Position numbers and translations under genes: made by a program
DNA from: Candidatus Saccharimonadota bacterium
GTDB lineage: Bacteria > Patescibacteriota > Saccharimonadia > Saccharimonadales > UBA10212
DNA length: 64,000 nucleotides
NCBI GenBank assembly: GCA_022841445.1
Contig: JALHRM010000004.1
Coordinates: forward strand, 11,429-75,428
Direction of reading: 5' to 3'
The notes under the pieces: generated by a model
The model's database searches: none
What the model saw: only the letters and a program-made list of their open reading frames with translations
Told to the model about the DNA's origin: nothing
Part shown: positions 184 through 63,687 of the stretch, piece after piece
Numbering within the stretch: position 1 is the first letter of the stretch
Layout: the number at the start of each line of letters is the position of its first letter

Positions 184-2208
184 TTAGTTCAGATTTGTCA
201 CTGCTCGCAAAGCGCTAACTTTGGCAGCTAACTGCGGATATTGTAGCAGATTTTCACCTTGGTCAATAAATGCTTGTGCACTTGCCCGCGCAGCGGCAAT
301 AAGCTTAGTGTCGCTTAGTTTTGCAACCCGAAGGTCTAGTGCACCATGCTGATTAGTGCCATATATCGCCCCTGGCCCACGTAAGCGAAGATCCAGTTCC
401 GCCAACTTAAAACCATCGTGTGTTGTTTCAAGGGCTGAAAGACGTGTAGTAGCTACCTGACTACTGCTTGGCACCAGGAAACAGTGACTCTGATGCAATC
501 CTCGCCCGACTCTTCCCCGCAGCTGGTGAAGCTGTGCCAGTCCAAAACGCTCGGCAGCTTCAATGATCATGCAGGTGGCATTTGGCACATCGATGCCGAC
601 TTCGATAACAGTTGTGCACACCAACACATCGATCTTTCCCTGCTTAAAGTCCTTCATGACTGCTTCTTTTTGGTCGGATTTCATTTTTCCATGCACTAGC
701 CCTACCCGGCGCGATTTAAAGTGCCCGGACTTAAGCTTTTCGTACATTACCTCTGCCGACAATAATGAGCTGTCATCACCCTCGACAATCTGAGGGCAAA
801 CTACGTATACCTGACGACCAGCGTCAAGTTCGACTTCAGCTTGGCGGTATAGTGATTCCCTGGAATTCGGAGAATGTAATTTAGTGTTAATAGGCAACCG
901 GCCTTTAGGTAATTCATCAATGAGACTAATGTCGAGCTCACCGTACAGTGTCAACGCCAAACTACGCGGGATCGGTGTCGCCGAAAGGTGTAGAACGTGT
1001 GGCATATGACCGGCTTTGGCCTGCAGTTTTTTACGCTGCTCAACACCAAAACGGTGCTGCTCGTCGACAATAATGAAGCCCAGTTTTTTCATGACAACTT
1101 TTGTCTGAAACAACGCCTGTGTACCAACAATGAGACGCAAATCTCCGCTCGCTAAATTAGCGTAAATGTTTTGTCTTTGCTGACCTTTAACACTCCCCAC
1201 AAGCAGTTCTATTTCAGTATGCATGTCAACTGACTCAAAAATTTTTGTGAGCGATTCATAATGTTGCCTGGCCAGAATTTCGGTCGGTGCCATGAGTGCT
1301 ACTTGGAACCCTTTGCTCATCGCCATTAACGCTACTAGAGCAGCAACAACTGTCTTGCCGGAGCCGACATCACCCTCGACAAGTCGGTTCATCGGCTGCG
1401 TTTTCCCAATATCTGTCAATGCATCCCAAGCCACACGCCGCTGAGCATTAGTTAAGGCAAATGGTAGCTTTGCGACAAATTTCTGGGCAACTTTTTTATC
1501 AAATGGTATTGCTAGAGATTTTTCCGAGAGTAGTTCATGCTTATTTAATAGCGCTGCTAGACTAAGTCGAAATACTTCTTCAAAACCAAGACGTTTTTTG
1601 GCCTTTTCTAATGAAGCAGGCGAATCCGGAAAATGCATCTGAACAATGGCACTGCGATAATCTACTAGTTTATTGCTAGCCACAACCCACGCCGGCAAAT
1701 GCTCGTTAATCACTGGTAATTGGCCTAACGCCTGGTGCACTAATTTACGCAGTCCAGCAGAAGTAAGACCTTTTGTCTCACGGTATTTTGGCACAATCCG
1801 ATGGGCGTTGAGCGGAAAATCGGACACACGTTCAATTTGCGGATTCGTCATACTGAATCTTCCGCGGTTCAGCGCATATTCACCGACAACGTAATATGGC
1901 TGCTCATTTTGGATTGACGAAGCACGGTACGGTTGGTTAAACCATGTCACCCGAATGCTGCCGGTGTCATCGCTCGCTAGCGCTTCGGTTATATGCAATC
2001 CTCGTCGGACACGACGAGTAGCGATTGAAGAGAAGGTTACCCTCAAACAGGCTGCACCAGGTTTTAACTTCGAAATCTCAGTTACATTAGAGTAATCGTC
2101 ATAGCGACGAGGAAAATGTGTGATTAAATCCTCCACCGAATTAATGCCGAGCCGCTCAAGGCGAGCGGCCACAGATTCACCGACACCACTAAGTTCTCTA
2201 ATATTCAT
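184..2208 (-). CDS. recG: ATP-dependent DNA helicase RecG
   Basis: 674-aa ORF. SF2 helicase motifs GDVGSGKT (Walker A), IIVDEQHRFG (DEQH box) and QLHQLRGRVGRG (motif VI) follow an N-terminal wedge/OB region, which is the RecG architecture. Confidence 0.95.
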   Translation of the reverse strand: MNIRELSGVGESVAARLERLGINSVEDLITHFPRRYDDYSNVTEISKLKPGAACLRVTFSSIATRRVRRGLHITEALASDDTGSIRVTWFNQPYRASSIQNEQPYYVVGEYALNRGRFSMTNPQIERVSDFPLNAHRIVPKYRETKGLTSAGLRKLVHQALGQLPVINEHLPAWVVASNKLVDYRSAIVQMHFPDSPASLEKAKKRLGFEEVFRLSLAALLNKHELLSEKSLAIPFDKKVAQKFVAKLPFALTNAQRRVAWDALTDIGKTQPMNRLVEGDVGSGKTVVAALVALMAMSKGFQVALMAPTEILARQHYESLTKIFESVDMHTEIELLVGSVKGQQRQNIYANLASGDLRLIVGTQALFQTKVVMKKLGFIIVDEQHRFGVEQRKKLQAKAGHMPHVLHLSATPIPRSLALTLYGELDISLIDELPKGRLPINTKLHSPNSRESLYRQAEVELDAGRQVYVVCPQIVEGDDSSLLSAEVMYEKLKSGHFKSRRVGLVHGKMKSDQKEAVMKDFKQGKIDVLVCTTVIEVGIDVPNATCMIIEAAERFGLAQLHQLRGRVGRGLHQSHCFLVPSSSQVATTRLSALETTHDGFKLAELDLRLRGPGAIYGTNQHGALDLRVAKLSDTKLIAAARASAQAFIDQGENLLQYPQLAAKVSALRAVTNLN

Positions 2209-2214
2209 AGACTC

Positions 2215-2223
2215 AGTGTAGCA
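2215..2223 (-). promoter_or_regulatory. extended -10 (TGCTACACT) 6 nt upstream of recG ATG; leaderless-type promoter
   Basis: The minus strand reads TGCTACACT-gagtct-ATG(2208) with no SD in the spacer. Confidence 0.45.
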
Positions 2224-2232
2224 AGATGATAT

Positions 2233-3006
2233 CTAACGTTTTTTTAGACGCAACCAGATACTAGGCCCAAAATAGAGGGGCGCAAGTAGTGGCTGAAATA
2301 GCTTTTCAAGACTAAGCATAGTTGTTGGACTGAGCAGCCTCTTTAAACGAGTCGAACGTAGATTAGAGCCTGAAAGCACTGCCTCAAGCTCAAAACCGGC
2401 GTCATATATTTGCCGCAGTACCATTTTGGGATGATGATTAACAAATGGGATTTCGTTATCTGCCTTATTGGCATCGCTTCGAATGTCAACCGGTGTTTTC
2501 GGTACTACCTTGCCTTTCAATCCATACCTGATACGGTTGAGGCCATGGGCATTATTGGCAAATTCGAGCAGAAACGTACCGCCTGGTTTTAGCACACGGG
2601 CAATTTCGCTAAATTCCTGTCCTGGGTCTGGCAAGTGATGCAAAACCCGAACCATCAATACTAAGTCCACACTACCCGATTTCATCTTTAAGTCAGCTGC
2701 CTGTAGCTGACGCGCTTCGACGCGAGGTGCATCTTTTAGATAATCAGCGGCGATGTCTAGTTGCTGTTTGCTTGGTTCCGCCAAGATGACTTTTTCACTG
2801 AACGCGGTAATAAATTTACTGAGCCGCCCATACCCACCACCCACGTCAACAGCCATGTTGAATTGTCGGCCTTTTAAAAGTCGCATTATAGCTAGCTCTT
2901 CTGCGGCATGTTCGTATTCTCTCCCCACCCAGTACTGTTTGTAGTTGTGGGTTGGGTCATCATATTGATCTGCTTTACGGACGTGTTTTGCTGCTTGCTT
3001 TGACAT
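2233..3006 (-). CDS. class I SAM-dependent methyltransferase (substrate unknown)
   Basis: 257-aa ORF with Rossmann SAM motif I VDVGGGYGRL, followed by ILAEPS, DLVLMVRVLHH and LKPGGTFLLEF blocks. Confidence 0.8.
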   Translation of the reverse strand: MSKQAAKHVRKADQYDDPTHNYKQYWVGREYEHAAEELAIMRLLKGRQFNMAVDVGGGYGRLSKFITAFSEKVILAEPSKQQLDIAADYLKDAPRVEARQLQAADLKMKSGSVDLVLMVRVLHHLPDPGQEFSEIARVLKPGGTFLLEFANNAHGLNRIRYGLKGKVVPKTPVDIRSDANKADNEIPFVNHHPKMVLRQIYDAGFELEAVLSGSNLRSTRLKRLLSPTTMLSLEKLFQPLLAPLYFGPSIWLRLKKR

Positions 3007-3024: not shown

Positions 3025-4272
3025 TTAGTTTACATGCACAATAATTTGAGCGTTCTTGCCTCTGCGGATAAGCACATATGAGCCAATAAGGTCGGCTTGC
3101 TCAAGAACTGTTTTTTCGCTGCTGAACTGTATGCCGTTGATATATACTGCCGAGCCTTCTAAAAAGCGTCGGGCTTCGCTTTTACTGCTAGCAAGCTTAC
3201 CTTTAACTAGAATATCAATAATGGGCGTTTCGCCCAGTTGAGCTTCAACTACCGGTAATTCTCCTTGTAGTACTGCAAAATCCTGTTCTTTCAAATCGCG
3301 ATAGTCGGCGCCACCAAATAGAGCATTGGTTACGTTGCTCACAGCATCAGCTACGGGTATTCCGTGAACGATGGCGGTTACCTCATAGGCCAGCTTTTTT
3401 TGTGCAATTCGAGAAGAACGTTGCTCATTAAATTCAGAACCTACTGTCTCGATTTCTTCCTTTGTAAGGAGCGTATATATCTTTAAGAAATCAATTACTG
3501 CGTCGTCATCGACATTTAACCAAAACTGATAGAACTGGTAGGGTGAGGTGCGATTAGGATCTAGCCAAATGGCACCGGCCTCGCTTTTACCGAACTTGCG
3601 CCCAGTCGTGTTATCAATTACTAATGGCATCGACATGGCATGTACTTCGGCATTTTCTTTTTTACGTATCAGCGGCACCCCAGAAAGCATGTTGCCCCAT
3701 TGGTCGGATCCGCCGATTTGTAGCTCCACCTGGTGATTCTTGTTTAGATACCAGTAGTCATACCCCTGCATCAGCGTGTAGCTGAATTCCGCAAAACTCA
3801 TGCCGCTGCCACCTTCGCCAGTCCGCTCTACTACAAAGTCACGCTGCATAAGTTCTGTCATACTGAAATGTTTGCCAACTTCTCTTAAAAATTCGATAAA
3901 GCCAAGCGGCTCCAGCCAGTCTATGTTATTAACGGTTTGAAATGGCTTTCCATCGAACAGTTGTTCCACTTGTCGTTTTATGGCTACTGCATTGTTATCT
4001 ATTTCGCTGCGCGACTTTAATTCACGCTCTTCCGTTTTGCCACCTGGGTCTCCAACCAAACTAGTAGCACCTCCGATGAGCAGTACGCCGCTCCAGCCTG
4101 CTTCAACCATGCGCCGTGCCAGTAACATTGCAGCCAAATTACCGATGGTAAGACTATCGGCCGAGCAATCTACACCGTGATAAAACCATCTCGGTGTATC
4201 TAGCCAAGTGGCATCTTGAAACGTTGTGTCTTTTATCAATCCTCGCCAGGCGAGATCTTCTGAAAGCATCAT
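3025..4272 (-). CDS. tyrS: tyrosine--tRNA ligase
   Basis: Class Ic aaRS features: KFGKSE (KMSKS loop), GGSDQWGN block and a C-terminal S4-like RNA-binding domain. The ORF track starts at GTG 4278. ATG 4272 lies 8 nt downstream of a TATACT box and gives the typical N-terminus MMLSEDLAWRGLI, so I prefer 4272. Confidence 0.92.
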   Translation of the reverse strand: MMLSEDLAWRGLIKDTTFQDATWLDTPRWFYHGVDCSADSLTIGNLAAMLLARRMVEAGWSGVLLIGGATSLVGDPGGKTEERELKSRSEIDNNAVAIKRQVEQLFDGKPFQTVNNIDWLEPLGFIEFLREVGKHFSMTELMQRDFVVERTGEGGSGMSFAEFSYTLMQGYDYWYLNKNHQVELQIGGSDQWGNMLSGVPLIRKKENAEVHAMSMPLVIDNTTGRKFGKSEAGAIWLDPNRTSPYQFYQFWLNVDDDAVIDFLKIYTLLTKEEIETVGSEFNEQRSSRIAQKKLAYEVTAIVHGIPVADAVSNVTNALFGGADYRDLKEQDFAVLQGELPVVEAQLGETPIIDILVKGKLASSKSEARRFLEGSAVYINGIQFSSEKTVLEQADLIGSYVLIRRGKNAQIIVHVN

Positions 4273-4280
4273 TACCACTC

Positions 4281-4286
4281 AGTATA
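4281..4286 (-). promoter_or_regulatory. -10 box TATACT 8 nt upstream of tyrS ATG 4272
   Basis: The minus strand reads TATACT-gagtggta-ATGATG with no SD. Confidence 0.4.
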
Positions 4287-7461: not shown

Positions 7462-8802
7462 CTACTTCTTTTGTAGGTAGGTATTCAATGCGTCTTTAAC
7501 TGTCTTGATCGGCATTAGTCCAGTAAGCTGCTTGCGCTGGTACGGCGGCCCAATTGCCCCATCCAGTCCGAGTTTCTTTGCTTCAGCAAGGCGCTTTTCA
7601 ATATGAACCACGTGTCGAACTTCGCCGGAGAGTCCAATCTCGCCAAACACAGCAGCATTTGTATTCAGTTGCATGCCTTTTGCCGCACTGCCAATTGCCA
7701 AACATACGGCCAGGTCAGCAGCAGGATCCGAAAGTCGCATACCACCCACAATATTGAGGTACACATCGTAGTCGGATAGTGCTAGTTTAGTTCGTCGCTC
7801 AAGCACCGCAATAAGCAAATTCATTCGATTAACATCAAATCCGCTTGATGCACGTTTCGGGTATCCATAACTCGTCTTATTAACTAGGGCCTGGATCTCG
7901 ACGAGTAGCGCTCTGCTGCCTTCGACAGTGGCAAGTACTACCGATCCATCTGTAACCTGCCGCTCTGCCAAAAGTGCTTCTGACGGATTTTCAATCGGTT
8001 TCAACCCGCTACTATCCATTTCCAGAATTACTGCTTCGTCAGTAGGTCCATAGCGATTTTTAACCGCCCGAAGTACCTTGAAGCCGCCGTAACGGTCACC
8101 ATCAAGCTGCATCACTACGTCTACGAGATGTTCAAGCAGTTTTGGACCGGCTATCGTACCCTCTTTTGTGACATGCCCGACGATAATTAGCGTTGTGTTG
8201 CTGCGCTTGGCTGCCGCGCTTAATAGACGGGTGCTGTTGGTCACCTGAGCGGTACTGCCACTGGCCGAGAGCACACTATCCACCGAAACTGTCTGTATCG
8301 AATCGACGATAACAACGCCATACTCACCGGAGACGATACTGGCTGCAATATCATCACTGCTTGTTGAGGAAGCTAGTTTTAGCTTTGGCTGCATCGTACC
8401 AAGACGAGTACCTCGCAGTCCGACTTGACGGGCTGATTCTTCAGCGCTTACGTACAGCACGCTGTGCTGTTTTGCCGCGCCGCTTGCGATTTGTAGCAGT
8501 AGTGTACTTTTACCTATTCCAGGCTCACCAGCCAGTAGCACAACACTTCCAGCTACCAGCCCTCCACCAAGCAGCGTATCGATATTTGTGCTGTCTGTAG
8601 TAAGACGTGCCTCGTCCTTAGCTGTAGCGTCACGAAAATCTGTGACTACTAGCTTCTTGCCGTTGCCTCCTGGCTGGTCATTGAGCTGGATTTGCTCCTG
8701 CAGACTATTCCATGCGCCACAAACACTGCACTTCCCCGACCATTTAATGTGTGCCGATCCACACTCGGAACATACGAAACTAGTACTGGTCTTTTTTCCC
8801 AT
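7462..8802 (-). CDS. radA: DNA repair protein RadA (Sms)
   Basis: N-terminal C4 zinc finger (CSECG...CSVCG), Walker A GEPGIGKST, RadA-specific KNRYG motif and a Lon-protease-like C-terminal domain. Confidence 0.95.
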   Translation of the reverse strand: MGKKTSTSFVCSECGSAHIKWSGKCSVCGAWNSLQEQIQLNDQPGGNGKKLVVTDFRDATAKDEARLTTDSTNIDTLLGGGLVAGSVVLLAGEPGIGKSTLLLQIASGAAKQHSVLYVSAEESARQVGLRGTRLGTMQPKLKLASSTSSDDIAASIVSGEYGVVIVDSIQTVSVDSVLSASGSTAQVTNSTRLLSAAAKRSNTTLIIVGHVTKEGTIAGPKLLEHLVDVVMQLDGDRYGGFKVLRAVKNRYGPTDEAVILEMDSSGLKPIENPSEALLAERQVTDGSVVLATVEGSRALLVEIQALVNKTSYGYPKRASSGFDVNRMNLLIAVLERRTKLALSDYDVYLNIVGGMRLSDPAADLAVCLAIGSAAKGMQLNTNAAVFGEIGLSGEVRHVVHIEKRLAEAKKLGLDGAIGPPYQRKQLTGLMPIKTVKDALNTYLQKK

Positions 8803-8810
8803 AGACTTTT

Positions 8811-8816
8811 ATAGTA
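8811..8816 (-). promoter_or_regulatory. -10-like TACTAT 8 nt upstream of radA ATG
   Basis: The minus strand reads TACTAT-aaaagtct-ATG(8802). Confidence 0.35.
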
Positions 8817-8845: not shown

Positions 8846-9817
8846 TTACCGAATTTCTTGCGGCTCAGCCCTGGTATCAATCGCATCAGTTAAGTCTCGT
8901 ATTTCCTTGGCAAGTTCATTACGCTCTATTACAAGCTGATTATACTGTGTAATTTGAGCTTGAACGCCCCGTACCAGCTGATTGTAACTGCTTACATTCG
9001 CGTTAAACCCAGGTACGGATGCATTATATTGATCGCGCTGACCGCTTGATAATAAATTTTCGAGTTCAGTTCGTGATGCTTTTAAGTCTTTAAGTTGTTC
9101 GTTGAGTAGTTTTTCTGATGACTCAATACTTGCTTTCAATGTTGCCAACTGTGTGTCATAGGCATCAACGCGGTTCTTTCGCTTCGTAAATTCAGCTTCA
9201 TATTGTTTCGACAATGCAACCACACGCGCGCGATCGGTAAAGTATTTCTGATAGTATGTTTCAAGTTCTGCCGGAAGATCCTTCACCTCAGTTGCCAGGA
9301 TAGAATGAAGTTCGTTAGGAACGATAGTTGGGTCTTTGCGACGATATTGCTCAATGGTGCTTTTGATACGTTCATCATCCAGAGCAGCAAACGCTTGTGC
9401 CGTTAGTGTGTTTACTCGTTGCCGCTCAGAGCCACTAAGCCGATCATAGCCGGCATGAAGCATTTCATGTGCGGCAGTCACTTCTTGAATTCCATCCAAA
9501 CGCACATCATTTACATCATAAATGAATATTCCGGTGTTGGTGCGATAGCAGCCAAGAACAATCGAAGCTTCACTGTCGGTGCAATGTACTCGAAAAGCCG
9601 CTAGATTGTCAACCTTTGGATGATTGACATAAAATAGCTTACGACCAAATGCATTCATTGATGTATTGGTGGCGAGATTTGCAACTTCCTGTGTGGGAAC
9701 ATACCCCCGAAGACGCCACCAGTCAAAAATGTCTTGTCGCTTGATGAGCGCAATCAGCGGTAGCGACAAAATTGCTACGACAACAAGTATCCCGACCAGT
9801 TTACGGGTGCGATGCAT
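8846..9817 (-). CDS. membrane-anchored HExxH protein with C-terminal coiled coil (putative zinc-metallopeptidase-like); function unknown
   Basis: 323-aa ORF with an N-terminal TM helix (LVGILVVVAILSLPLIALI), a globular region containing AAHEMLHAGY, and ~130 aa of heptad-like Q/E/L/K-rich sequence. The family is not recognised. Confidence 0.55.
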   Translation of the reverse strand: MHRTRKLVGILVVVAILSLPLIALIKRQDIFDWWRLRGYVPTQEVANLATNTSMNAFGRKLFYVNHPKVDNLAAFRVHCTDSEASIVLGCYRTNTGIFIYDVNDVRLDGIQEVTAAHEMLHAGYDRLSGSERQRVNTLTAQAFAALDDERIKSTIEQYRRKDPTIVPNELHSILATEVKDLPAELETYYQKYFTDRARVVALSKQYEAEFTKRKNRVDAYDTQLATLKASIESSEKLLNEQLKDLKASRTELENLLSSGQRDQYNASVPGFNANVSSYNQLVRGVQAQITQYNQLVIERNELAKEIRDLTDAIDTRAEPQEIR

Positions 9818-9824
9818 AAGGACA

Positions 9825-9833
9825 ATTATATCA
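9825..9833 (-). promoter_or_regulatory. extended -10 (TGATATAAT) 7 nt upstream of the HExxH-protein ATG
   Basis: The minus strand reads TGATATAAT-tgtcctt-ATG(9817). The hexamer is a perfect consensus. Confidence 0.5.
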
Positions 9834-13728: not shown

Positions 13729-13737
13729 TGTCATAAT
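13729..13737 (+). promoter_or_regulatory. extended -10 (TGTCATAAT) 7 nt upstream of plsC ATG
   Basis: TGTCATAAT-agccgcc-ATG(13745) with no SD. Confidence 0.5.
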
Positions 13738-13744
13738 AGCCGCC

Positions 13745-14443
13745 ATGCATGTACGTGAAGCTGAATTTTCAGAGGTTCCGAATCCAAGACTGTATGCTCA
13801 AGTATTTGATTTGAGTCTTCGAGCAACAAGATGTTTACTTGCCTATCAAGTGGAAGGAAGTGAACATATACCGCAACATGGTGGTGCGCTTGTAGTCTCT
13901 AACCACTTGAAGCTGCGTGATCCTATTTTTACAGGGCTTGCGACCGGATTAACGAGCCGGCGAGCAGCTTACATAATGGCGAAGAAAGAACTATTCGTGC
14001 CGTTACTAGGCATTGATAAGCATTTGCGGGGCGTTGGCGCGTTTCCCGTCGATCGCAACGATCCGGGTACGGAGTCGATACGAGAAGCGTGTGCTTATAT
14101 TGAAGATGGCGCGCTGGTTTTTATGTACCCCCAGGGCACGCGCTCTTCTAAAAATGATGTAGTTAGTATACATGAAGGAGCAGCCAGCATACTTACGAGA
14201 ACGGAAGCGCCCTTATCAGTAATGGGCATCGCATACGGCGGCTTACTTCGAGCAGCGACATCTGTAGCGCCAACTGCCAGCTACGGCGAACTACGCGACC
14301 AAGCAACACAAGGATTACACCGTCCAAGCAAAAAAGATGTGCGACAGGCGCTTACTGCACTCATCGCTTCAAAAATACAGCAGCAGCAACTTAGGGCGCA
14401 CTTGAGGCTAGCTGGTAATCGTAATCCTGTGCCAGTCTGTTAG
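13745..14443 (+). CDS. plsC: 1-acyl-sn-glycerol-3-phosphate acyltransferase family protein
   Basis: Acyltransferase HxxxxD motif (SNHLKLRD), FPVDR and YPQGTRS blocks. The ORF-track start (GTG 13565) overlaps nusA and adds 60 implausible residues. ATG 13745 sits 7 nt after TGTCATAAT. Confidence 0.8.
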   Translation: MHVREAEFSEVPNPRLYAQVFDLSLRATRCLLAYQVEGSEHIPQHGGALVVSNHLKLRDPIFTGLATGLTSRRAAYIMAKKELFVPLLGIDKHLRGVGAFPVDRNDPGTESIREACAYIEDGALVFMYPQGTRSSKNDVVSIHEGAASILTRTEAPLSVMGIAYGGLLRAATSVAPTASYGELRDQATQGLHRPSKKDVRQALTALIASKIQQQQLRAHLRLAGNRNPVPVC

Positions 14444-14446
14444 AAT
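14438..14446 (+). promoter_or_regulatory. extended -10-like TGTTAGAAT 7 nt upstream of pepN ATG (overlaps the plsC stop)
   Basis: TGTTAGAAT-caaggct-ATG(14454). Alternatively, pepN is simply co-transcribed with plsC. Confidence 0.3.
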
Positions 14447-14453
14447 CAAGGCT

Positions 14454-17372: not shown

Positions 17373-17930
17373 CTAGACTAATTCACGTATCGGCTTAAAA
17401 CAAAAGCGGTGTACTGCCGCCAATGGGCCGTGCTTTCGCAGTGCGTTACTATGTAGTCTAGTACCGTATCCGACGTGGCGCTCAAAGCCATATTCCGGAT
17501 ACGTTGTAGATAACTGTTCCATGTAGGCATCACGCGCTACCTTTGCCCAAATACTAGCAGCCGAAACAATTGGCACTGAACTATCGGCTTTAACACGAGT
17601 TTCCACAAATTCATACTCGATAGGAATATAGTTAAACTTACCATCGAGTATGATATGTTCGCTGCGAGAGACGCTGATAGACGCAAGTGCACGCGAAGCA
17701 CCTATCGTTAAGCTGGTCGATAAACCAAATTGATCAATTTCAGCGGGCTCCACCCAACCCTCACCAAACTCACAAGTACCTAAAAGCTCCCTACTAAAAT
17801 GTTGTCTCTGTAGATTGCTGAGTGCTTTGGAGTCTGTAATTCCTGCCGGCAGATTATGAACCGATCGTGCCGCAACGACGAGCAAAGGACCTGCCCATGC
17901 TCCACGGCCAACTTCATCAATGCCAATCAT
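17373..17930 (-). CDS. rnhB: ribonuclease HII
   Basis: 185 aa. N-terminal IGIDEVGRGAWAGPL catalytic block plus DSK and downstream acidic residues typical of RNase HII. Confidence 0.93.
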   Translation of the reverse strand: MIGIDEVGRGAWAGPLLVVAARSVHNLPAGITDSKALSNLQRQHFSRELLGTCEFGEGWVEPAEIDQFGLSTSLTIGASRALASISVSRSEHIILDGKFNYIPIEYEFVETRVKADSSVPIVSAASIWAKVARDAYMEQLSTTYPEYGFERHVGYGTRLHSNALRKHGPLAAVHRFCFKPIRELV

Positions 17931-17936
17931 GTCACA

Positions 17937-17942
17937 ATAATA
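17937..17942 (-). promoter_or_regulatory. -10-like TATTAT 6 nt upstream of rnhB ATG
   Basis: The minus strand reads TATTAT-tgtgac-ATG(17930). Confidence 0.35.
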
Positions 17943-18482: not shown

Positions 18483-18493
18483 AAGACCAAGTT

Positions 18494-20147: not shown

Positions 20148-20157
20148 TACAGAGCCT

Positions 20158-20163: not shown

Positions 20164-20216
20164 AACCACTAGCGTTTCGATTGCGACGCCACACGCGCTA
20201 TAGTATTCACTACTCA

Positions 20217-45578: not shown

Positions 45579-46025
45579 TCATTTTTCAATGGTTTGATTA
45601 GATAAATATGCCACTGTATCTAAGTAGTCATTACGCTTTTTTAACGGTATGGCGCTCAACCATTTACTAAGGCCTCGACGTATTTCGGCCTCAACAAGCG
45701 CGAGCGCATCTGATCCTTTGTTGGTTATCACAGTTGTATTTGCCCGCCTGTCTTCGCGACTATGGCGTTGATCGACCATTTCTAGTCGGAGAAGTGTCTT
45801 AAGCAGTGCGGTGATATGCGGTAATCCCACCCCCAACTCCTCAGATAATTGGCTATTGCTACACCCCGCAACTCCACTTTCTTGAATCAGTGACAAGGCC
45901 AACCATTCACTTTTGGTGAGTTCCTGCTTATCCAGAACTTTTTGTACAACTGTCGTCAGATTGCGCTCTGCGCGCATGTGCGTCAAACAAGCCCGAAATG
46001 CATGTAGCTGCGACTTCCCACCCAT
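45579..46025 (-). CDS. MarR-family transcriptional regulator
   Basis: 148 aa. Winged-HTH region (LTKSEWLALSLIQESG...NSQLSEELGVGLPHITALLKTLLRLEMVDQRHSREDRR). Cysteines at ACLTH and AGCSN. Last gene of the trxB unit. Confidence 0.8.
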   Translation of the reverse strand: MGGKSQLHAFRACLTHMRAERNLTTVVQKVLDKQELTKSEWLALSLIQESGVAGCSNSQLSEELGVGLPHITALLKTLLRLEMVDQRHSREDRRANTTVITNKGSDALALVEAEIRRGLSKWLSAIPLKKRNDYLDTVAYLSNQTIEK

Positions 46026-46032
46026 ACTAGTA

Positions 46033-46041
46033 ATGGTAGCA
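46033..46041 (-). promoter_or_regulatory. extended -10-like TGCTACCAT 7 nt upstream of marR ATG
   Basis: The minus strand reads TGCTACCAT-tactagt-ATG(46025). Confidence 0.3.
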
Positions 46042-54061: not shown

Positions 54062-55098
54062 TTGAACTGCCTTAGGAACTTTAAATTGGCACTATGAAAA
54101 TAACGGACGTCTTCGATATCATGCTTCAACATCACGAGGCGCTCGATACCAAACCCCCAGGCAAAACCAGAATAAGCGGCCGGATCAATATCGGCTTCTT
54201 TTAAAACGTTGGGGTGAATCATTCCGCAGCCGCCTAGCTCGATCCACCCTGATTGCGAGCAGATATTGCAGCCCTTTTGGTTACAAAAAACACAACTGGC
54301 CACAAATTCAAAACTGGGCTCCGTAAACGGGAAATAGAATGGCTGTAGTTTCACTTTTATATCTTTTTCAAAGTACGCACCGAGCCAGGATTTTAGCACC
54401 GCAATCAAGTGAGCGGTTGAAACACCGTGGTCTACATATATGCCCTCCAACTGATAAAAGGTGTGTTCATGGCGAGCATCAAGGTCTTCGTTGCGGAATA
54501 CGCGATCTGGTATCACCGCTGCAATTGGCAGGTCGTTTTTTACTAAATCGTTCTTCCCGGCACGCAGTATGCGGTTCTGCATGGTACTGGTATGAGCCGG
54601 CGCAATTAAGCCTTCGTCGGTCACGAATGTATCATAGTCATCCCGTGCCGGATGATCAGCCGGAAAATTAAGACTTGTAAACATATGGTAATCGTCGTCA
54701 ATCTCGCGTGATTCGTAAACGCTAAAACCCATCCGGCTCAAGATTCCTATGATGTGTTCCACTTCGCTCATCAGAGGGTGAATCGTACCCTGTGAAGCAG
54801 GAAGCAGCACTGGCTGATCTTTCACCGCCACATTGATGTCAAACGGCGCAGTGATATCAATCGATGGGTGTTCATCGGCTGTTTCAACAACTGAGTCTAC
54901 CCAAGATTGCAATTCGTTCTTAAGTTCGTTTACTTCTTTACCAAATCCGGCTTTTTGGTCTGGTGGTAGTGTTTTAAGCTGATCATATAATGAGCCGAGT
55001 TCGAGCGATCGCATGATAGCCCGCTTGTCGTCTAGTGATTCAAAGACAGATTTTAGCGTATCAGCCACACGAGCAATATCAGGATTTTGATAGGCCAT
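54058..55098 (-). CDS. pheS: phenylalanine--tRNA ligase alpha subunit
   Basis: 346 aa. Class II motifs (HPARDDYDTF, FRNEDLDARHEHTFYQLEG, GFAWGFGIERL). Confidence 0.95.
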   Translation of the reverse strand: MAYQNPDIARVADTLKSVFESLDDKRAIMRSLELGSLYDQLKTLPPDQKAGFGKEVNELKNELQSWVDSVVETADEHPSIDITAPFDINVAVKDQPVLLPASQGTIHPLMSEVEHIIGILSRMGFSVYESREIDDDYHMFTSLNFPADHPARDDYDTFVTDEGLIAPAHTSTMQNRILRAGKNDLVKNDLPIAAVIPDRVFRNEDLDARHEHTFYQLEGIYVDHGVSTAHLIAVLKSWLGAYFEKDIKVKLQPFYFPFTEPSFEFVASCVFCNQKGCNICSQSGWIELGGCGMIHPNVLKEADIDPAAYSGFAWGFGIERLVMLKHDIEDVRYFHSANLKFLRQFK

Positions 55099-55108
55099 AA
55101 TTGCTGTA

Positions 55109-55117
55109 ATTATATCA
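55109..55117 (-). promoter_or_regulatory. extended -10 (TGATATAAT) 10 nt upstream of pheS ATG
   Basis: The minus strand reads TGATATAAT-tacagcaatt-ATG(55098). The whole pheS/yajQ gap is 47 nt, which leaves no room for a T-box leader. Confidence 0.5.
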
Positions 55118-55133: not shown

Positions 55134-55139
55134 TATACT
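55134..55139 (+). promoter_or_regulatory. -10 TATACT 6 nt upstream of yajQ ATG
   Basis: TATACT-atttat-ATG(55146) with no SD. Confidence 0.45.
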
Positions 55140-55145
55140 ATTTAT

Positions 55146-55643
55146 ATGGCAGATTATAGTTTCGATATTGTTAGTGAGTACGACAAAGCCGAGATGAACA
55201 ACGTTTTCGACCAGACGCGGCGCGAGATGGCCAACCGCTATGACTTTAAAAATACTTCGGCAGCCATTGAGTGGCTTGACGGCGACAAGACTGGTTTGAA
55301 AATTACTGGCGACGGACAATACCAGCTTGATGCCATTATTGATATTGTCCGTAAAAAACTAGCAACTCGCGGGCAAAACCAGAAAGTACTCGACCTCAGC
55401 AAAGAGCCACTAACCGCCAATATGAAAACGACATGGCACGTTTCTTTCGTAAGCGGGCTCGATAGTGTCAAGGCGAAAAAAATCACCACTATCATCCGTG
55501 ATAGTCACCCCAAGCTCAAAACCCAAATACAGGGCGATGCGGTAAGAGTCGTCAGTCAAAAAAAGGATGAACTTCAGGCGGTGATGCAACTCCTACAGTC
55601 TCAAGAATTAGACTTTCCCATACATTTTACAAATTACCGATAA
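55146..55643 (+). CDS. yajQ: YajQ-family nucleotide-binding protein
   Basis: 165 aa. SFDIVSEYDKAEMNNVFDQTRREMANRYDFK matches the YajQ N-terminal signature. Confidence 0.9.
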   Translation: MADYSFDIVSEYDKAEMNNVFDQTRREMANRYDFKNTSAAIEWLDGDKTGLKITGDGQYQLDAIIDIVRKKLATRGQNQKVLDLSKEPLTANMKTTWHVSFVSGLDSVKAKKITTIIRDSHPKLKTQIQGDAVRVVSQKKDELQAVMQLLQSQELDFPIHFTNYR

Positions 55644-55648: not shown

Positions 55649-55654
55649 TATAAT
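55649..55654 (+). promoter_or_regulatory. consensus -10 TATAAT 10 nt upstream of the divergent GH63-like gene
   Basis: TATAAT-tagcataatt-ATG(55665). Confidence 0.4.
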
Positions 55655-55664
55655 TAGCATAATT

Positions 55665-57146
55665 ATGGCTACAGTCGAACAGGCCTGCGTGTTACTTGAT
55701 GACCGATGGCGACCTATAGGTGTTGCAAACAGTCCTGCTCACCCTGACAGCTGGGGTAGTGAACGCACCTTGTATATTGGAGCACAACTAGCCATCGCCA
55801 GTAGCTTTAGGGAAGGTCTAGGGACTGAAGTAAGCCCAGCACACCCAGATGGTTTTGGGCATGAGACCGCTGGCTTAGTACATGCTCATTTGGCTACTGG
55901 CAACCCAGACCGGGCAATGGTGGAATTTGACCGCTACATAGCCAGTGTTTATCCAAGCGGGTTTTCTGGCCACTATGTGCTTGGTCCGCATAAGCGACTC
56001 GGCATGGAGACAAACTTTATAGACGCGTTTGTGCAGCGAGCGATCAAACTACCAAACGGCGAACGAGTATCGCCACTCGCCGCTCCACCGAACTGGGCGA
56101 TAGCCGCCGAGGCTATCGCTGGTCACCTCGAAGAAACAGGTGTAAACGCAAAAGATTGGGTAGCTGAACACTTTGATCTGTTATGCCGTAGTACGTTAGC
56201 ACTATATCGAGAACGTGGGCAGAGCGACGGAATGCTGGTTCAGTTACACCAAGATGAACTAACCCTCAGGGATGGCCGGCTGAGAGATTTGTCGGTAGCT
56301 ACTGCCAAGCAAGCAGGAGGAAAGCAAGGACCAGTTGGCCAGAATCTCGGCAGCATACGACAAGTCTTGTATGCTGACTCGGAAAACGCTGCCGACAAAG
56401 AGCGGTTATCTAAAGATCCCCGCCAAGGACGTCTTGGACGCAACATGAAGTATGCTCCAATGATAGATGTTGGCATAAATGCGCTTAATGTCGCTAATAA
56501 TCGAGCCTTACAAAGGCTTGCTGAGCGATATAAATTGGTTATCCCCGAATCACTTGCTGATCTAGCTACACGAAGCGAACTATCATGGGCAAAGATTTGC
56601 GAACACGATGTACGATATTATCGTTTGCCAAGTTCCCGAATTTTGGACTCTGACATATTGCCGGGATCCAGCGAGGACGGTACCGGTCGCCCGGTGCCAA
56701 TGGAGGGGTTACTGGCTATTGCCCGTGCTCGGCCATACCTTCAAAGTGCCCCAGCCCAAAGAAGGGTATATGAAACTTTGACTGCAGTTACTGAAGCATT
56801 TCCATTTGGTATACCAACTCACGCATATATTTCAAAAGCCGGTAGGTTGACTGCTCAAAATCAACACGACCAAGGCACTATTTCACCATCGCTCACACTA
56901 GAACTCGCTGCGTTATTAGCCCAATCAGAGCAAGCACGATTTCGCGAATTAGGTCACGAAATAGGCCGCAATACACTACGCTCGTTACAAAATGCCCCAG
57001 AAAATCATTTTCCCCGAACGCTTGATCCTAACAGCGGCGAATCAAATCAAGCCGGTCCTGTTACGAGACGAGTAAAAAGCCGCCGGCCAGACTGGATGCC
57101 AACCGCCGCAGCCATGGTAGCTACCGCTCGCGTGTTTGAGACATAA
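55665..57146 (+). CDS. divergent (alpha/alpha)6-barrel GH63-like protein, paralog of the downstream gene; activity uncertain
   Basis: 493 aa. Three weak collinear echoes of the downstream GH63-like protein: AHPDSWGSERTLYIGAQLAIA vs HQWLWDSCFVAIGL, SPLAAPPNWAIAAEAI vs GITQPPMLAEAIV, and the C-terminal DWMPTAAAMVATARVF vs FSWTAALILDWL. Similarity was judged by eye only. Confidence 0.4.
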   Translation: MATVEQACVLLDDRWRPIGVANSPAHPDSWGSERTLYIGAQLAIASSFREGLGTEVSPAHPDGFGHETAGLVHAHLATGNPDRAMVEFDRYIASVYPSGFSGHYVLGPHKRLGMETNFIDAFVQRAIKLPNGERVSPLAAPPNWAIAAEAIAGHLEETGVNAKDWVAEHFDLLCRSTLALYRERGQSDGMLVQLHQDELTLRDGRLRDLSVATAKQAGGKQGPVGQNLGSIRQVLYADSENAADKERLSKDPRQGRLGRNMKYAPMIDVGINALNVANNRALQRLAERYKLVIPESLADLATRSELSWAKICEHDVRYYRLPSSRILDSDILPGSSEDGTGRPVPMEGLLAIARARPYLQSAPAQRRVYETLTAVTEAFPFGIPTHAYISKAGRLTAQNQHDQGTISPSLTLELAALLAQSEQARFRELGHEIGRNTLRSLQNAPENHFPRTLDPNSGESNQAGPVTRRVKSRRPDWMPTAAAMVATARVFET

Positions 57147-57171: not shown

Positions 57172-57180
57172 TGCTATACT
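57172..57180 (+). promoter_or_regulatory. extended -10 (TGCTATACT) 11 nt upstream of the GH63 gene
   Basis: TGCTATACT-ttttagcagtc-ATG(57192). Confidence 0.45.
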
Positions 57181-57191
57181 TTTTAGCAGTC

Positions 57192-58505
57192 ATGGATGAG
57201 ACTCTGCTAAAAAAATCTGTTATTGATGTTATAAATGCCAACGACCGCGGAACGCACACCGTACCGGCCGAAAAGCTCTATTCGCACCAGTGGCTATGGG
57301 ATAGCTGTTTCGTCGCTATCGGCCTGCGACACATGAACATTAAGCGCGCACAGCACGAGGTGCTACGCCTGCTTCATGGTCAGTGGGCTAACGGTATGGT
57401 GCCACACATGATATTCGCCAAGGGCGACCAGCACCGTCGTGACCGCGAACTATGGCGTAGTTACGTTAGCCCGTTCGCTCCTGATCACCTCTATACCTCA
57501 GGCATTACCCAGCCGCCAATGCTGGCCGAAGCCATTGTAAGAATTGGTGAAAAAATGAATCTCGCCGATCGTCGCAACTGGTATCAGACCGTGTACCCTG
57601 GACTGCTTCACTATCATCAATGGATGTACAGTGACCGTGACCCGCACAATGAAAGTCTGGTTTTGTCACTACACCCTTACGAAACCGGCTTTGACAATAC
57701 ACCACCGTGGATTGTTAGCATGCGTGAACACAGTATGCCGTTTTGGATCACCGCTCTTGAAAAACTTAAATTAGAATCAGTCGTGACGTTGCTGCGCCGT
57801 GACACACGCTATATTCCGCCAGGCCAGCGTATCAGCACCATTGAAGCCCTCGCCTTTTTTTCGGCGCTGCGCCGTCTTAGACGTAAAGCTTATAATACTG
57901 AAAGAATCCTGTCTCGGTCGTTATTTGCTATAGAAGATCTGGCTGTTAATTGTATAGCCATACGCGCTAACCAGCATTTGCAAGATATCGCCAAAACTAT
58001 TCGGCGAAAATTGCCGGATGAGCTGACACAAGACATTGCCCGAAGTCATGATGCGCTGGATGAGCTCTGGGACGCCAGTAGCGGGCAGTATTACTCACGC
58101 AATTTTGTGACGCATAAACTGATTTTAGAACCAACAGTTGCCACGCTTTTGCCGCTCTACAGCGGAGCCATTACGAAAGAACGAGCCAAACAACTGGTCG
58201 ATTTATTGCACAGCAAACAACATTTCGCCGCCAAATACCCAGCACCAAGCGTCCCGCTTAATTCGACTTATTTTGATCCGCTGCGTTACTGGCAAGGGCC
58301 ATCCTGGATCAATATCAACTGGTTAGTTGCAGACGGACTAACCCGCTATGGGTATAGCAAAGAAGCATTAATGCTTCGGCAAAAGTCGCTTGAACTAGTC
58401 GCTGCACACGGACCGTACGAGTATTTTAGTCCGCTCGATGGAACACCTGCCGGAGCCCGCGGCTTTAGCTGGACGGCGGCTCTCATACTTGACTGGCTGA
58501 GCTAA
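57192..58505 (+). CDS. GH63-family glucosylglycerate/mannosylglycerate hydrolase-like glycosidase
   Basis: 437 aa. The blocks LYSHQWLWDSCFVAIGL, QWANGMVPHMIF, SGITQPPMLA, HPYETGFDNTPPW, YWQGPSWININWL, YEYFSPLDGTPAG and FSWTAALILDWL match my recollection of bacterial GH63 MGH/GgH enzymes. Confidence 0.7.
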   Translation: MDETLLKKSVIDVINANDRGTHTVPAEKLYSHQWLWDSCFVAIGLRHMNIKRAQHEVLRLLHGQWANGMVPHMIFAKGDQHRRDRELWRSYVSPFAPDHLYTSGITQPPMLAEAIVRIGEKMNLADRRNWYQTVYPGLLHYHQWMYSDRDPHNESLVLSLHPYETGFDNTPPWIVSMREHSMPFWITALEKLKLESVVTLLRRDTRYIPPGQRISTIEALAFFSALRRLRRKAYNTERILSRSLFAIEDLAVNCIAIRANQHLQDIAKTIRRKLPDELTQDIARSHDALDELWDASSGQYYSRNFVTHKLILEPTVATLLPLYSGAITKERAKQLVDLLHSKQHFAAKYPAPSVPLNSTYFDPLRYWQGPSWININWLVADGLTRYGYSKEALMLRQKSLELVAAHGPYEYFSPLDGTPAGARGFSWTAALILDWLS

Positions 58506-59118: not shown

Positions 59119-60321
59119 TTACTCCAGCAAGGCTGCCTGTTCAGCTCGCTCAACGGTTTTGTCGGCCAGATTTTGCACTTTGCCAAGTTTACGCTCTATT
59201 GTGCGCGACTTGGTCGAAGCTCTATCAAGCTCATTCGTAACACCGATAAGTTTGTCACGCGTTTTTTCCAGCAGGCCACCGAAAGTACCAAATTCTTTTT
59301 TAACGTCGGTCAGTAGCTCCCAAACCGCTCCTGTTTGCTTGGCAATCGCCAGACTACGAAAGCCCATTTGAAGCGCATTGAGCATGGCTGTAACCGTACT
59401 AGGGCCTACAATTGCTACTCGGTAATCCCTTTGGATTTGCTGCATCAGTTCGGCTTTTTGCATGACTTCGGCATATATCCCTTCGGTTGGTAAGTATAGG
59501 TAAGCAAATTCAAGCGTCTTGGGCGGATCAATATATTTTTCGCGAATTTTTTTCGCCTCACGCTTAATGGTTGATTCTAAGTCCTTATGTGCAACTGCAA
59601 GCAACTGGAGGTCGGCCTTTTCCTGGGCGGTGACCAGACGTTGGTAATCCTCAATGGGGAACTTAGCATCAATCGGCAGCAGCACAAATTGATCATCACT
59701 TTCTTTGCTGGGAATTTTTATTGCAAACTCAACCCTTTCCGAACTGCCGGTTTTTATGGCAACGTTTGTAGTGTACTGTTCGGGTGATAACACTTGTTCC
59801 AAAATGGCTCCAAGCTGCACTTCGCCCCAAGTACCACGAGTTTTAACGTTGGTTAATACGCGCTTAAAATCACTAACGTTACTGGCCAGTTCTTGCATTT
59901 CGCCCAATCCTTTATGAACCTGCTCAAGCCGCTCATCTACACGCTTAAAACTCTCGCCGAGACGCTTTTCCAGCGTAGCCTGTAATTTTTCATCAACAGT
60001 CGCCCGCATGCGTTCTAGTTTTTCGGCATTATCTTTTTGCAGCAACTCAAGTTTCGTTTCGACAGTTTTTCTGATCTGTTCTAGCTTTTGGTCATTCTTG
60101 TCACGCAAATCTTCAAGTCGCTTTTCTAGGCTGTCGCGCGACTGAGTGATGCCGCTGTTTAGTTCTTGACGCAGATCTTTTTGGGCCTGCGCGTTTTCCT
60201 GGCGGCTTTTGCCGAATTCGTCGCGAACTGTTTTGTCGCTATCACTAGAAGTTTTTCTGGCCACTAAAAATACCAGCATGAGTGCGTTCAATGCGCCCAA
60301 AATAACCAATAGCGTTGCCAT
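59119..60321 (-). CDS. rmuC: DNA recombination protein RmuC
   Basis: 400 aa. N-terminal TM helix, a long coiled coil, and the C-terminal RmuC nuclease-like domain (VEFAIKIP, LPIDAKFP, YLYLPTEGIYAE, VAIVGPST). Confidence 0.88.
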   Translation of the reverse strand: MATLLVILGALNALMLVFLVARKTSSDSDKTVRDEFGKSRQENAQAQKDLRQELNSGITQSRDSLEKRLEDLRDKNDQKLEQIRKTVETKLELLQKDNAEKLERMRATVDEKLQATLEKRLGESFKRVDERLEQVHKGLGEMQELASNVSDFKRVLTNVKTRGTWGEVQLGAILEQVLSPEQYTTNVAIKTGSSERVEFAIKIPSKESDDQFVLLPIDAKFPIEDYQRLVTAQEKADLQLLAVAHKDLESTIKREAKKIREKYIDPPKTLEFAYLYLPTEGIYAEVMQKAELMQQIQRDYRVAIVGPSTVTAMLNALQMGFRSLAIAKQTGAVWELLTDVKKEFGTFGGLLEKTRDKLIGVTNELDRASTKSRTIERKLGKVQNLADKTVERAEQAALLE

Positions 60322-60329
60322 ATGCTCTA

Positions 60330-60335
60330 ATTATA
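60330..60335 (-). promoter_or_regulatory. consensus -10 TATAAT 8 nt upstream of rmuC ATG
   Basis: The minus strand reads TATAAT-tagagcat-ATG(60321). Confidence 0.45.
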
Positions 60336-62411: not shown

Positions 62412-62491
62412 TTTGTTATGTCCTTCATGTTACTTACGCTTTTTATTTTCTTATAATACGATTGATCTTCCCTGTTTTCAACTTGAGCTCG

Positions 62492-62497
62492 TATACT
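62492..62497 (+). promoter_or_regulatory. -10 TATACT 8 nt upstream of rarA ATG
   Basis: TATACT-gaaagaac-ATG(62506). A second TATAAT at 62452-62457 is an alternative promoter with a ~42-nt leader. Confidence 0.4.
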
Positions 62498-62505
62498 GAA
62501 AGAAC

Positions 62506-63687
62506 ATGGAGGCTCCTACTATCCCATTATCGGAACAACTTCGCCCTAAACGTCTGGCCGACGTACTCGGGCAAAAGCATATCCTACAAGATGGACAGTT
62601 ACTGCATCAGCTGGTCGCCAGAAAGCAGCCCGCCAATCTTATATTTTGGGGACCGCCAGGTAGTGGCAAAACGACCCTTGCCAGAATAATTGCTAACGAA
62701 CTAGAGGCTGATTTTATTGAGTTAAGTGCTGTTTCTGCGGGGGTGTCGGATGTTAGAGCCGTCATAAAACAAGCCGAACAAAATCGACGGCTGGCCATAA
62801 AAACCGTGCTTTTCGTTGACGAAATTCACCGCTTTAACAAATCACAACAAGACGCCTTCTTGCCCCACGTAGAAAGCGGGCTAATTACACTAATCGGCGC
62901 CACGACCGAAAATCCTAGTTTTGAAATTATAAGTCCGCTACTGTCTCGGAGCCGTGTCGTTACGCTGCAAGCTATTGAAAAGAAGGACATTATGACGCTG
63001 CTGCGTCGGGCATCGAAGCACCTAAAAATAACTCGCAGAATAAAGAATCCTGTATATCAATTAATCGCCGATCTTAGCGGAGGAGATGGCCGCGCGGCAC
63101 TTAATATTTTGGAGTTGGCGGTGGCGATATCTGATGAGCAAATTACAAAGGAAACTATCCAAAAGGCCGTGCAAAGAAAAACTCCCGCTTTTGATAAAAA
63201 TGGTGAACACCACTACAACGTCATCAGTGCCTTTATCAAATCTATGCGCGGCGGAAACCTACACGCCAGTTGTTATTACTTAGCACGAATGCTTCAAGGC
63301 GGCGAAGATCCCAAATTCATCGCGAGACGGATGATTATATTTGCAAGCGAAGATATAGGTGTCGCAGGCAGCGCGGCACTCAATTTGGCAGTTAGTACTT
63401 TTGCAGCCGTGGAACGGCTTGGTTTGCCGGAGTGCCAATACGCTCTGTACCACTGCGCTATCGTGCTTAGCGGCAGCAAAAAATCACGACTTGTCGCCGA
63501 TGCTTTGGCGGCAAGTAGCCAGGCGGCAGCCGATCACCCCAATGCCGAAGTGCCACTGCATCTTCGTAACGCGCCAACTGATTTAATGAAGAATTTAGGT
63601 TATGGTAAGGGTTACAAAAAGTATGTTAACGATGATGAACTGAGTGGTTTCTTACCTGATGAACTTCAAGATTTCAAAATTTTTTAG
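62506..63687 (+). CDS. rarA: replication-associated recombination protein A (MgsA/RarA AAA+ ATPase)
   Basis: 393 aa. Walker A GPPGSGKTT, Walker B LFVDEIHRFNK, sensor GATTENPSF, and the MgsA C-terminal blocks (HYNVISAFIKSMRG, ARRM..ASEDIG). Confidence 0.92.
   Translation: MEAPTIPLSEQLRPKRLADVLGQKHILQDGQLLHQLVARKQPANLIFWGPPGSGKTTLARIIANELEADFIELSAVSAGVSDVRAVIKQAEQNRRLAIKTVLFVDEIHRFNKSQQDAFLPHVESGLITLIGATTENPSFEIISPLLSRSRVVTLQAIEKKDIMTLLRRASKHLKITRRIKNPVYQLIADLSGGDGRAALNILELAVAISDEQITKETIQKAVQRKTPAFDKNGEHHYNVISAFIKSMRGGNLHASCYYLARMLQGGEDPKFIARRMIIFASEDIGVAGSAALNLAVSTFAAVERLGLPECQYALYHCAIVLSGSKKSRLVADALAASSQAAADHPNAEVPLHLRNAPTDLMKNLGYGKGYKKYVNDDELSGFLPDELQDFKIF

Follow-up and report, generated by a model that had tools for sequence, protein, structure and literature searches.

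Promoter-like −10 hexamers next to start codons suggest leaderless expression of operon-head genes in a Saccharimonadia genome

Genes and start-proximal hexamers in the window

We analyzed how genes begin in a 64,000-nucleotide (nt) stretch of a Candidatus Saccharimonadota genome (contig JALHRM010000004.1, positions 11,429 to 75,428), hereafter called the window. An earlier note on this DNA had proposed that 23 genes carry a −10-like hexamer (the box) 6 to 11 nt before the start codon and that their mRNAs are leaderless or nearly so. The window has a GC content of 46% and is densely coding, with intergenic gaps mostly shorter than 100 nt, and it holds 57 genes defined by open reading frames (ORFs) plus a small glutaredoxin-like gene, 58 in all. 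Scans of the whole 64 kb found neither tRNA genes nor a match to any Rfam family; therefore, an RNA gene explains none of the gaps.

All 23 combinations of box, spacer, start codon, and coordinate were present exactly as the earlier note had given them (Table 1). The hexamers conform to TANNNT, with the exception of the plsC-like gene, whose box reads CATAAT and does carry the TG extension. An extended −10 element (TGn before the hexamer), claimed for about half of the boxes, was counted in 10 of 23 (43%), with a p value of about 10−6 when chance TG is assumed to be roughly 7%. NCBIfam and Pfam confirmed the identities of recG, tyrS, radA, the plsC-like and pepN-family genes, rnhB, rplS, pilB/gspE, dnaE, galU, gatC, uvrB, the N-terminal part of tkt, rel, the MarR gene, pheS, yajQ, the MGH1/GH63-like genes, rmuC, and rarA. 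The labels "HExxH" and "DUF948-like" found no support in these databases at the thresholds used.

Several full-length family profiles begin to align close to the first residue of the protein, which supports the proposed N termini. In addition to recG and radA (Table 1), this was seen for rnhB (residue 2 on profile position 5), rplS (3 on 2), uvrB (4 on 2), gatC (5 on 2), galU paralogue 2 (3 on 1), yajQ (2 on 2), and rel (6 on 7). The suggestion that the box resolves ambiguous start codons is thus supported for galU paralogue 2 and rel, while the alignments do not discriminate between starts for tyrS and plsC. For dnaE, any earlier start is precluded by an in-frame TAA located after the box and before the GTG. 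The ORF start of the SpoU-methylase gene (20181-20717) at TTG 20181 is probably wrong, and ATG 20217 is proposed in its place since it agrees with the Pfam domain boundary and with the relatives and has a box ahead of it.

About 39 window genes either lie behind a gap of 10 nt or more or have a divergent neighbor, and these were taken as candidate operon heads. A box lies at 6 to 11 nt in 23 of these (59%), corresponding to about 40% of the genes (23/58), whereas nine heads are led by a Shine-Dalgarno (SD) sequence, namely, the PBP, clpC, nusA-like, pfkB-family, gap, ppa, grx-like, FKBP, and pilin-like genes. The SpoU-methylase and NUDIX genes look like two further short-leader cases that had been missed, and the remaining 5 of the 39 heads belong to none of these groups. 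For this window, then, the claim that the box-led mode dominates among operon heads is upheld. Eight of the 23 boxes stand at divergent heads, and 15 lie in codirectional gaps of 10 to 63 nt.

Table 1. Start-proximal boxes in the window, with box, spacer length in nt, and start codon
Gene	Coordinates	Strand	Box-spacer-start	Remarks
recG	2206..2223	−	TGCTACACT-6-ATG	Extended −10 through start codon; RecG profile aligned from residue 2
tyrS	4270..4286	−	TATACT-8-ATG	Divergent from PBP gene
radA	8800..8816	−	TACTAT-8-ATG	RadA profile position 3 on residue 4
323-amino-acid gene ("HExxH" in the earlier note)	9815..9833	−	TGATATAAT-7-ATG	clpC stop codon 3 nt before box; no Pfam or NCBIfam match
plsC-like acyltransferase	13729..13747	+	TGTCATAAT-7-ATG	CATAAT, the weakest box
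pepN-family	14438..14456	+	TGTTAGAAT-7-ATG	plsC stop TAG inside box
rnhB	17928..17942	−	TATTAT-6-ATG	
rplS	18480..18499	−	TATAAT-11-ATG	TTGCTA 17 bp upstream of box
pilB/gspE-type ATPase	20145..20163	−	TATACT-10-ATG	Divergent from spoU-like gene
dnaE	25472..25490	−	TATAAT-10-GTG	
84-amino-acid membrane protein ("DUF948-like" in the earlier note)	26670..26689	−	TATAAT-11-ATG	
galU paralogue 2	28473..28491	−	TGGTATCAT-7-ATG	
gatC	32125..32147	−	TGCTATAAT-11-ATG	Head of gatCAB
uvrB	34145..34162	−	TGGTACAAT-6-ATG	
Transketolase N-terminal subunit (tkt)	39878..39896	−	TATAAT-10-ATG	
rel (RelA/SpoT)	42190..42204	+	TATACT-6-ATG	Divergent from gap gene
MarR-family regulator	46023..46041	−	TGCTACCAT-7-ATG	
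pheS	55096..55117	−	TGATATAAT-10-ATG	Divergent from yajQ across a 47-bp gap
yajQ	55134..55148	+	TATACT-6-ATG	
MGH1-like glycoside hydrolase ("GH63-like" in the earlier note)	55649..55667	+	TATAAT-10-ATG	
MGH1-like/GH63 hydrolase	57172..57194	+	TGCTATACT-11-ATG	
rmuC	60319..60335	−	TATAAT-8-ATG	
rarA/mgsA	62492..62508	+	TATACT-8-ATG	
SpoU-methylase gene (additional candidate)	20199..20219	+	TATAGT-12-ATG or TAGTAT-10-ATG	Absent from the earlier note
NUDIX gene (additional candidate)	25506..25531	+	TGCTACACT-14-ATG	Predicted leader of ~7 nt; no SD

Position, architecture, and conservation of the boxes

Because the earlier note had some freedom in picking starts, the chance test took every ORF from its farthest upstream start (the longest ORF) regardless of any box, giving 56 genes. 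A loose box (TANNNT) at a spacer of 6 to 11 nt precedes 21 of the 56, versus a mean of 8.1 after dinucleotide-preserving shuffling of the same upstream regions; for strict, near-consensus boxes (at least five of six positions matching TATAAT), the count is 15 versus 1.6 expected. None of the 2,000 shuffling rounds reached 21 or 15, so the comparison that the earlier note had suggested as a check yielded a clear enrichment in the window. At in-frame internal ATGs of the window, the loose box is found in 8% and the strict one in 0.6% of cases. Of 81 annotated starts within the first 100 kb of Escherichia coli K-12, 3 had the loose box, 2 the strict box, and 38 an SD match.

The analysis was extended to 80 loci (1.55 Mb) from species-representative genomes, retrieved with the DnaE protein of the window at 58 to 65% protein identity. 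This sequence had no role in generating the leaderless hypothesis. Most of the genomes are labeled Candidatus Saccharibacteria, Saccharimonadales, or Saccharimonadia, and about a dozen bear other or generic labels of metagenome-assembled genomes; ORF calling was crude and gave 1,256 genes. In an annotation-free count, ATG is 3- to 5-fold enriched 6 to 9 nt after TATAAT or TATACT (40 to 78 per 1,000 versus ~15), and no such enrichment was seen in the 1.55 Mb after the reverse-complement control, ATTATA. Near-consensus boxes peak at spacer 6 (74 to 81 per 1,000 genes), drop over spacers 7, 8, and 9, and are near background at 10 to 11; the peak thus puts the A of the ATG where transcription from a sigma-70 promoter canonically starts (+1). 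A low, broad rise of boxes at 20 to 33 nt from the start is compatible with promoters whose transcripts have a short leader with an SD, the relatives' dnaE genes being an example. The signal was seen in 75 of 79 loci and involves a median of 26% of all genes.

The boxes are distributed according to gene arrangement. Among the relatives' divergent genes (n = 416), 31% have a strict box at 6 to 11 nt versus 3% at a control offset of 20 to 25 nt, and the corresponding values are 46% versus 11% for codirectional genes behind a gap of 21 to 60 nt and 3.5% versus 2% for those behind a gap of at most 5 nt. We also considered a stop-codon artifact, in which an upstream TAA or TAG supplies the TA of the hexamer. 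It was rejected, since the peak (at spacers 6 to 9) persists in the 416 divergent genes, which have no upstream stop nearby.

Promoter architecture was assessed by aligning 289 boxes of the relatives on the hexamer and reading flanking features that had not been used in selecting them. T occurs at −3 in 49% and G at −2 in 57%, i.e., an extended −10 element, and T, T, and G occur at −23 to −21 in 46, 42, and 36%, respectively, i.e., a weak −35 TTG at a spacing of exactly 17 bp. Of the 23 window boxes, 16 have G at −2 and 13 have T at −23. TGn together with TTG at 17 bp is sigma-70 geometry and would be meaningless to a ribosome.

The boxes and SD sequences exclude each other. SD strength was scored as the duplex energy with CACCUCCUU, and values weaker than −4 kcal/mol were counted as no match. 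All of the SD strings that the earlier note had listed for other genes are present (PBP AAGGAG, clpC AAGGGTG, nusA GGAGA, FKBP GAGGG, and the rest), and its claim that the spacers of the 23 box genes hold none was upheld, as every one scored weaker than −4 kcal/mol. At a cutoff of −5.9 kcal/mol or stronger, SD matches were found in 0/23 box genes versus 15/34 other window genes (Fisher p = 1.1 × 10−4). Likewise, the relatives have an SD in 12 of 289 box genes (4%) versus 334 of 876 box-negative genes (38%). These data are consistent with the two initiation modes that had been proposed.

Start codon usage differs along the same line. Orthologs with a near box start with ATG in 307 cases, GTG in 10, and TTG in none, versus 225, 49, and 23, respectively, for SD-led orthologs (p = 3.5 × 10−8 for the TTG difference); the 23 window box genes comprise 22 ATG and 1 GTG. 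A bias to ATG and GTG without TTG is expected of leaderless genes, because the start codon would then be read at an mRNA 5′ end that begins with a purine.

To follow single genes, ortholog starts were placed by alignment to the N terminus of the window protein and not by the box. TANNNT at a spacer of 6 to 11 nt was retained by the heads uvrB (44/46 orthologs, 35 of them at spacer 6), gatC (55/60), DUF948-like (37/41, mostly spacer 6), pepN (30/33), rplS (49/59), pilB (52/64), and rnhB (41/54), as well as by the SpoU-methylase gene (44/72, mostly spacer 6). The operon-internal controls gatB (0/64), gatA (4/59), g24 (3/62), and g19 (2/73) and the SD-led nusA-like control (0/18) gave few or none. 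The rplS orthologs even share a common arrangement, TTGa-17-TGTAnnnT-9-ATG. Unconstrained intergenic sequence would presumably not stay conserved at ~60% DnaE protein identity, and gene-specific retention of the box at this distance therefore argues for function.

For two genes, the relatives appear to be divided between the modes. Among 80 dnaE orthologs, 19 have a near box, 51 are SD led, and none has both; the SD-led ones carry GAGGG, with TATAAT 20 to 35 nt upstream and often a TTG or GTG start. For galU1, the numbers are 21 near box versus 24 SD led, with one ortholog having both. Judging from these counts, dnaE switches its initiation mode within the class, and galU1 likewise. The window itself holds tandem galU paralogues (26693-28475), with a −10 box close to the start of the upstream copy and, for the downstream copy, the SD AAAGGAG and a GTG start. 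For the gap gene, the most likely start is the in-frame GTG 42089, which follows AAGGGGGA (42040-42110), and a TACAAT box stands ~48 nt upstream of this GTG, followed at once by a two-codon mini-ORF (ATG AAT TAA).

Other observations concern the box genes and their neighbors. The divergent pheS/yajQ gap (55099-55145, 47 bp) contains two −10 boxes 19 bp apart, so that the −35 position of each promoter overlaps the −10 of the other; the two predicted leaderless promoters would have to share this DNA in competition. A similar arrangement is found in the pilB/spoU gap (20148-20216). The rplS product (17973-18482) has 169 amino acids versus 114 positions in the L19 profile, and its C-terminal extension of ~55 amino acids fits the enlarged bL19 reported for candidate phyla radiation (CPR) bacteria (PMC9297842). 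Transketolase appears to be split into two adjacent genes (38010-39880): the product of 38993-39880 matches profile positions 11 to 268 of 627, and 38010-38996 would be the C-terminal part. The gene of a 957-amino-acid membrane protein (48095-50968/50949-53492 region) has a TTG as its only upstream-most start, preceded by neither a box nor an SD, and this TTG overlaps an upstream 847-amino-acid ORF, probably pheT, by 20 nt.

Proposed leaderless initiation and its alternatives

We propose that sigma-70-type promoters, often with an extended −10 element, abut the start codons of these genes, so that their transcripts would have little or no leader and would be translated in an SD-free, 5′-end-dependent manner, while internal and leadered genes would use SD sites. 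We estimate the probability of this reading at roughly 0.85. The hexamers would be −10 elements, often TGnTAtaaT, with a weak −35 TTG 17 bp upstream. At spacers of 6 to 8 nt, the first nucleotide transcribed by RNA polymerase would be the start codon's own A (or G), leaving the mRNA with neither a 5′ untranslated region nor an SD; its 5′-terminal AUG would be bound by a ribosome carrying initiator tRNA, as in leaderless translation. Spacers of 10 to 14 nt would produce leaders of 3 to 8 nt, too short for an SD. An ordinary SD site would serve genes inside operons and the smaller set of heads whose upstream regions are longer. The position of the motif, its promoter architecture, its conservation in relatives, the SD exclusivity, and the start codon bias were observed directly, and together with the restriction to heads they provide good support for the leaderless reading; the transcription start positions and the translation route are what we infer from them.

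The spacers of the window deserve separate mention. They look bimodal, with 14 boxes at 6 to 8 nt, none at 9, and 9 at 10 to 11, and the boxes of all nine longer cases are TATAAT or TATACT. Spacers of 10 to 11 nt account for only 28 of 290 boxes (~10%) in the relatives, which are unimodal at 6 to 9, versus 9 of 23 in the window (p = 1.7 × 10−4). For the same gene, the window spacer is longer than that of most relatives (DUF948-like, 11 versus 6; pilB, 10 versus 7 to 8; rplS, 11 versus 9), and this excess in the present genome may be new. An in-frame noncanonical start for the 10- to 11-nt class was considered and rejected on inspection, as the pattern was inconsistent: ATT stands before the ATG in two genes (pheS and GH63-like) and GTA in two others (pilB and tkt).

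Several points weigh against the proposed mechanism. The nine spacers of 10 to 11 nt predict mRNAs with leaders of 3 to 5 nt, and 5′ extensions of this length weaken 5′-AUG-dependent initiation in E. coli; the translation route of this class is therefore uncertain. The dnaE box is not conserved in most relatives (present near the start in 19/80), and the plsC hexamer, CATAAT, departs from TANNNT. The −35 element is weak (TTG only), promoter identity rests on the −10 hexamer, TGn, and the 17-bp TTG, and a generic two-hexamer promoter scan of window positions 1 to 20000 found 30 sites versus 31.1 expected. Finally, the 15 boxes in codirectional gaps could be internal promoters, and the genes that we take to be transcription-unit heads may also be carried on read-through transcripts.

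The last point leads to the strongest rival, in which the boxes are real but mostly minor internal promoters and the proteins are made mainly from polycistronic read-through by translational coupling or reinitiation, leaderless mRNAs being a side product. Besides the 15 codirectional boxes, it is favored by the finding that intrinsic-terminator-like hairpins are not enriched in window positions 1 to 20000 (23 versus 18.3 expected). However, the eight boxes at divergent heads have no upstream codirectional transcript, and the relatives' divergent genes show the same peak. Moreover, the box genes lack an SD, gaps of 10 to 63 nt exclude coupling by overlapping stop and start codons, and a nearly exclusive use of ATG with no TTG at all is expected only where the start codon is read at an mRNA 5′ end. 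We thus regard this account as improbable.

A still smaller chance is given to the idea that the hexamer is no promoter at all and serves as a non-SD translation signal on a leadered mRNA, either an AT-rich enhancer or an S1-binding site. Its distance to the start codon is indeed that of a ribosome binding site, and AT-rich upstream regions can aid initiation. Such motifs, as in the Bacteroidetes-type group B genomes of GeneMarkS-2, precede all genes, operon-internal ones included (PMC6028130), whereas the internal genes studied here lack the motif (gatB, gatA, and the 3.5% at gaps of at most 5 nt). The TGn extension and the TTG exactly 17 bp upstream also speak against a translation signal, and in dnaE orthologs TATAAT lies 20 to 35 nt upstream whenever an SD is present. 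Chance or composition would have to explain the pattern by AT-rich gaps, upstream stop codons, and free start choice yielding TANNNT near ATG. TANNNT is short, about 8 to 10% of any ATGs have one at 6 to 11 nt, the plsC stop codon lies inside the pepN box, and five starts had been moved in the earlier note; yet the unmoved longest-ORF starts gave counts that no shuffle reached, the peak recurs in divergent genes and in the independent 1.55 Mb, and the boxes are gene specific and conserved. We consider this explanation already refuted, with a negligible residual probability.

Known systems and meaning for Saccharibacteria

Leaderless genes of this kind have been described before. Zheng et al. 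(2011; PMC3160421) took TANNNT ~10 bp before the start codon as the mark of leaderless genes, and validated it by dinucleotide shuffling. Their leaderless fractions were ~20% for Actinobacteria and reached 46% for Deinococcus radiodurans; they also noted TAtaaT in Chloroflexi and Aquificae of medium GC, as well as orthologs that switch initiation mode. Our inference is identical to theirs, and the window resembles their TA-led genes both in TAtaaT at medium GC and in mode-switching orthologs (here, dnaE and galU1). In contrast, no CPR genomes were available in 2011, and the ~40% of the window is among the higher values in the range published.

The second precedent is group C of GeneMarkS-2 (Lomsadze et al. 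2018; PMC6028130), comprising Actinobacteria and Deinococcus-Thermus, in which a Pribnow box lies 6 to 8 nt from operon-first starts, SD sites are used elsewhere, and 25 to 50% of transcripts are predicted to be leaderless. The window shares the −10 TANNNT near the starts of first genes and the SD for the remaining genes. It differs in belonging to Saccharibacteria, a CPR lineage unnamed in the main text of that paper, in a GC content of 46% where almost all code-11 group C genomes are high in GC (10.1101/2022.07.25.500264), and in having the full TAtaaT with frequent TGn and many spacers of 10 to 11 nt. Closer in genome type are the reduced Mycoplasma genomes assigned to group C in the MetaGeneMark-2 preprint (10.1101/2022.07.25.500264), with 30 to 60% of genes predicted to be leaderless. 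These are likewise small, reduced, and not high in GC, but Mycoplasma uses genetic code 4 and comes from an unrelated phylum. In archaeal leaderless transcription (group D), too, the start codon stands at the mRNA 5′ end and SD sites are used inside operons, whereas the archaeal box is located 22 to 26 nt upstream of the start and the peak found here is at 6 to 9 nt.

The phenomenon has thus been known since 2011, and a gene finder has made use of it since 2018; novelty may lie in the lineage at mid-GC, and annotation based on GeneMarkS-2 may already capture the signal implicitly. A literature search, covering the main text of PMC6028130, found no report of leaderless expression in Saccharibacteria, CPR, or Patescibacteria. 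The one start-site set found cited for a Saccharibacterium is that of TM7x (Nanosynbacter lyticus; PMID 35975994, cited in PMC12641261). A study of CPR ribosomes described a short bS1, a missing bL9, and an anti-SD retained outside some Parcubacteria and made no mention of leaderless mRNAs (PMC9297842). We offer only tentatively, and with more doubt than confidence, the wider proposition that Saccharimonadia, possibly the CPR more broadly, represent an unrecognized mid-GC lineage in which leaderless initiation is dominant, with a share rivaling that of Deinococcus, and that the present genome favors mini-leaders of 3 to 5 nt before consensus promoters.

The mechanism is not new, and the leaderless reading is drawn from sequence. 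On how translation initiation evolved, the finding is mildly informative. There are practical consequences as well. Gene callers that favor SD sites may misplace starts in metagenome-assembled CPR genomes, for which the −10 rule would be a cheap correction, as in the move of the SpoU-methylase start from TTG 20181 to ATG 20217. Saccharibacteria are transformable (PMC10633639), and expression cassettes could use an extended −10 element of 15 to 20 bp placed 6 nt before the ATG, without a ribosome binding site. If the proposition holds, 5′-end-dependent initiation may be what the reduced CPR ribosome (short bS1, no bL9; PMC9297842) is adapted to, and high leaderless usage would be a trait shared on the Terrabacteria side by Actinobacteria, Deinococcus-Thermus, Chloroflexi, and CPR. 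The finding would add a deep-branching lineage with a reduced ribosome to the heavily leaderless bacteria, which bears on the debate over whether leaderless translation is ancestral.

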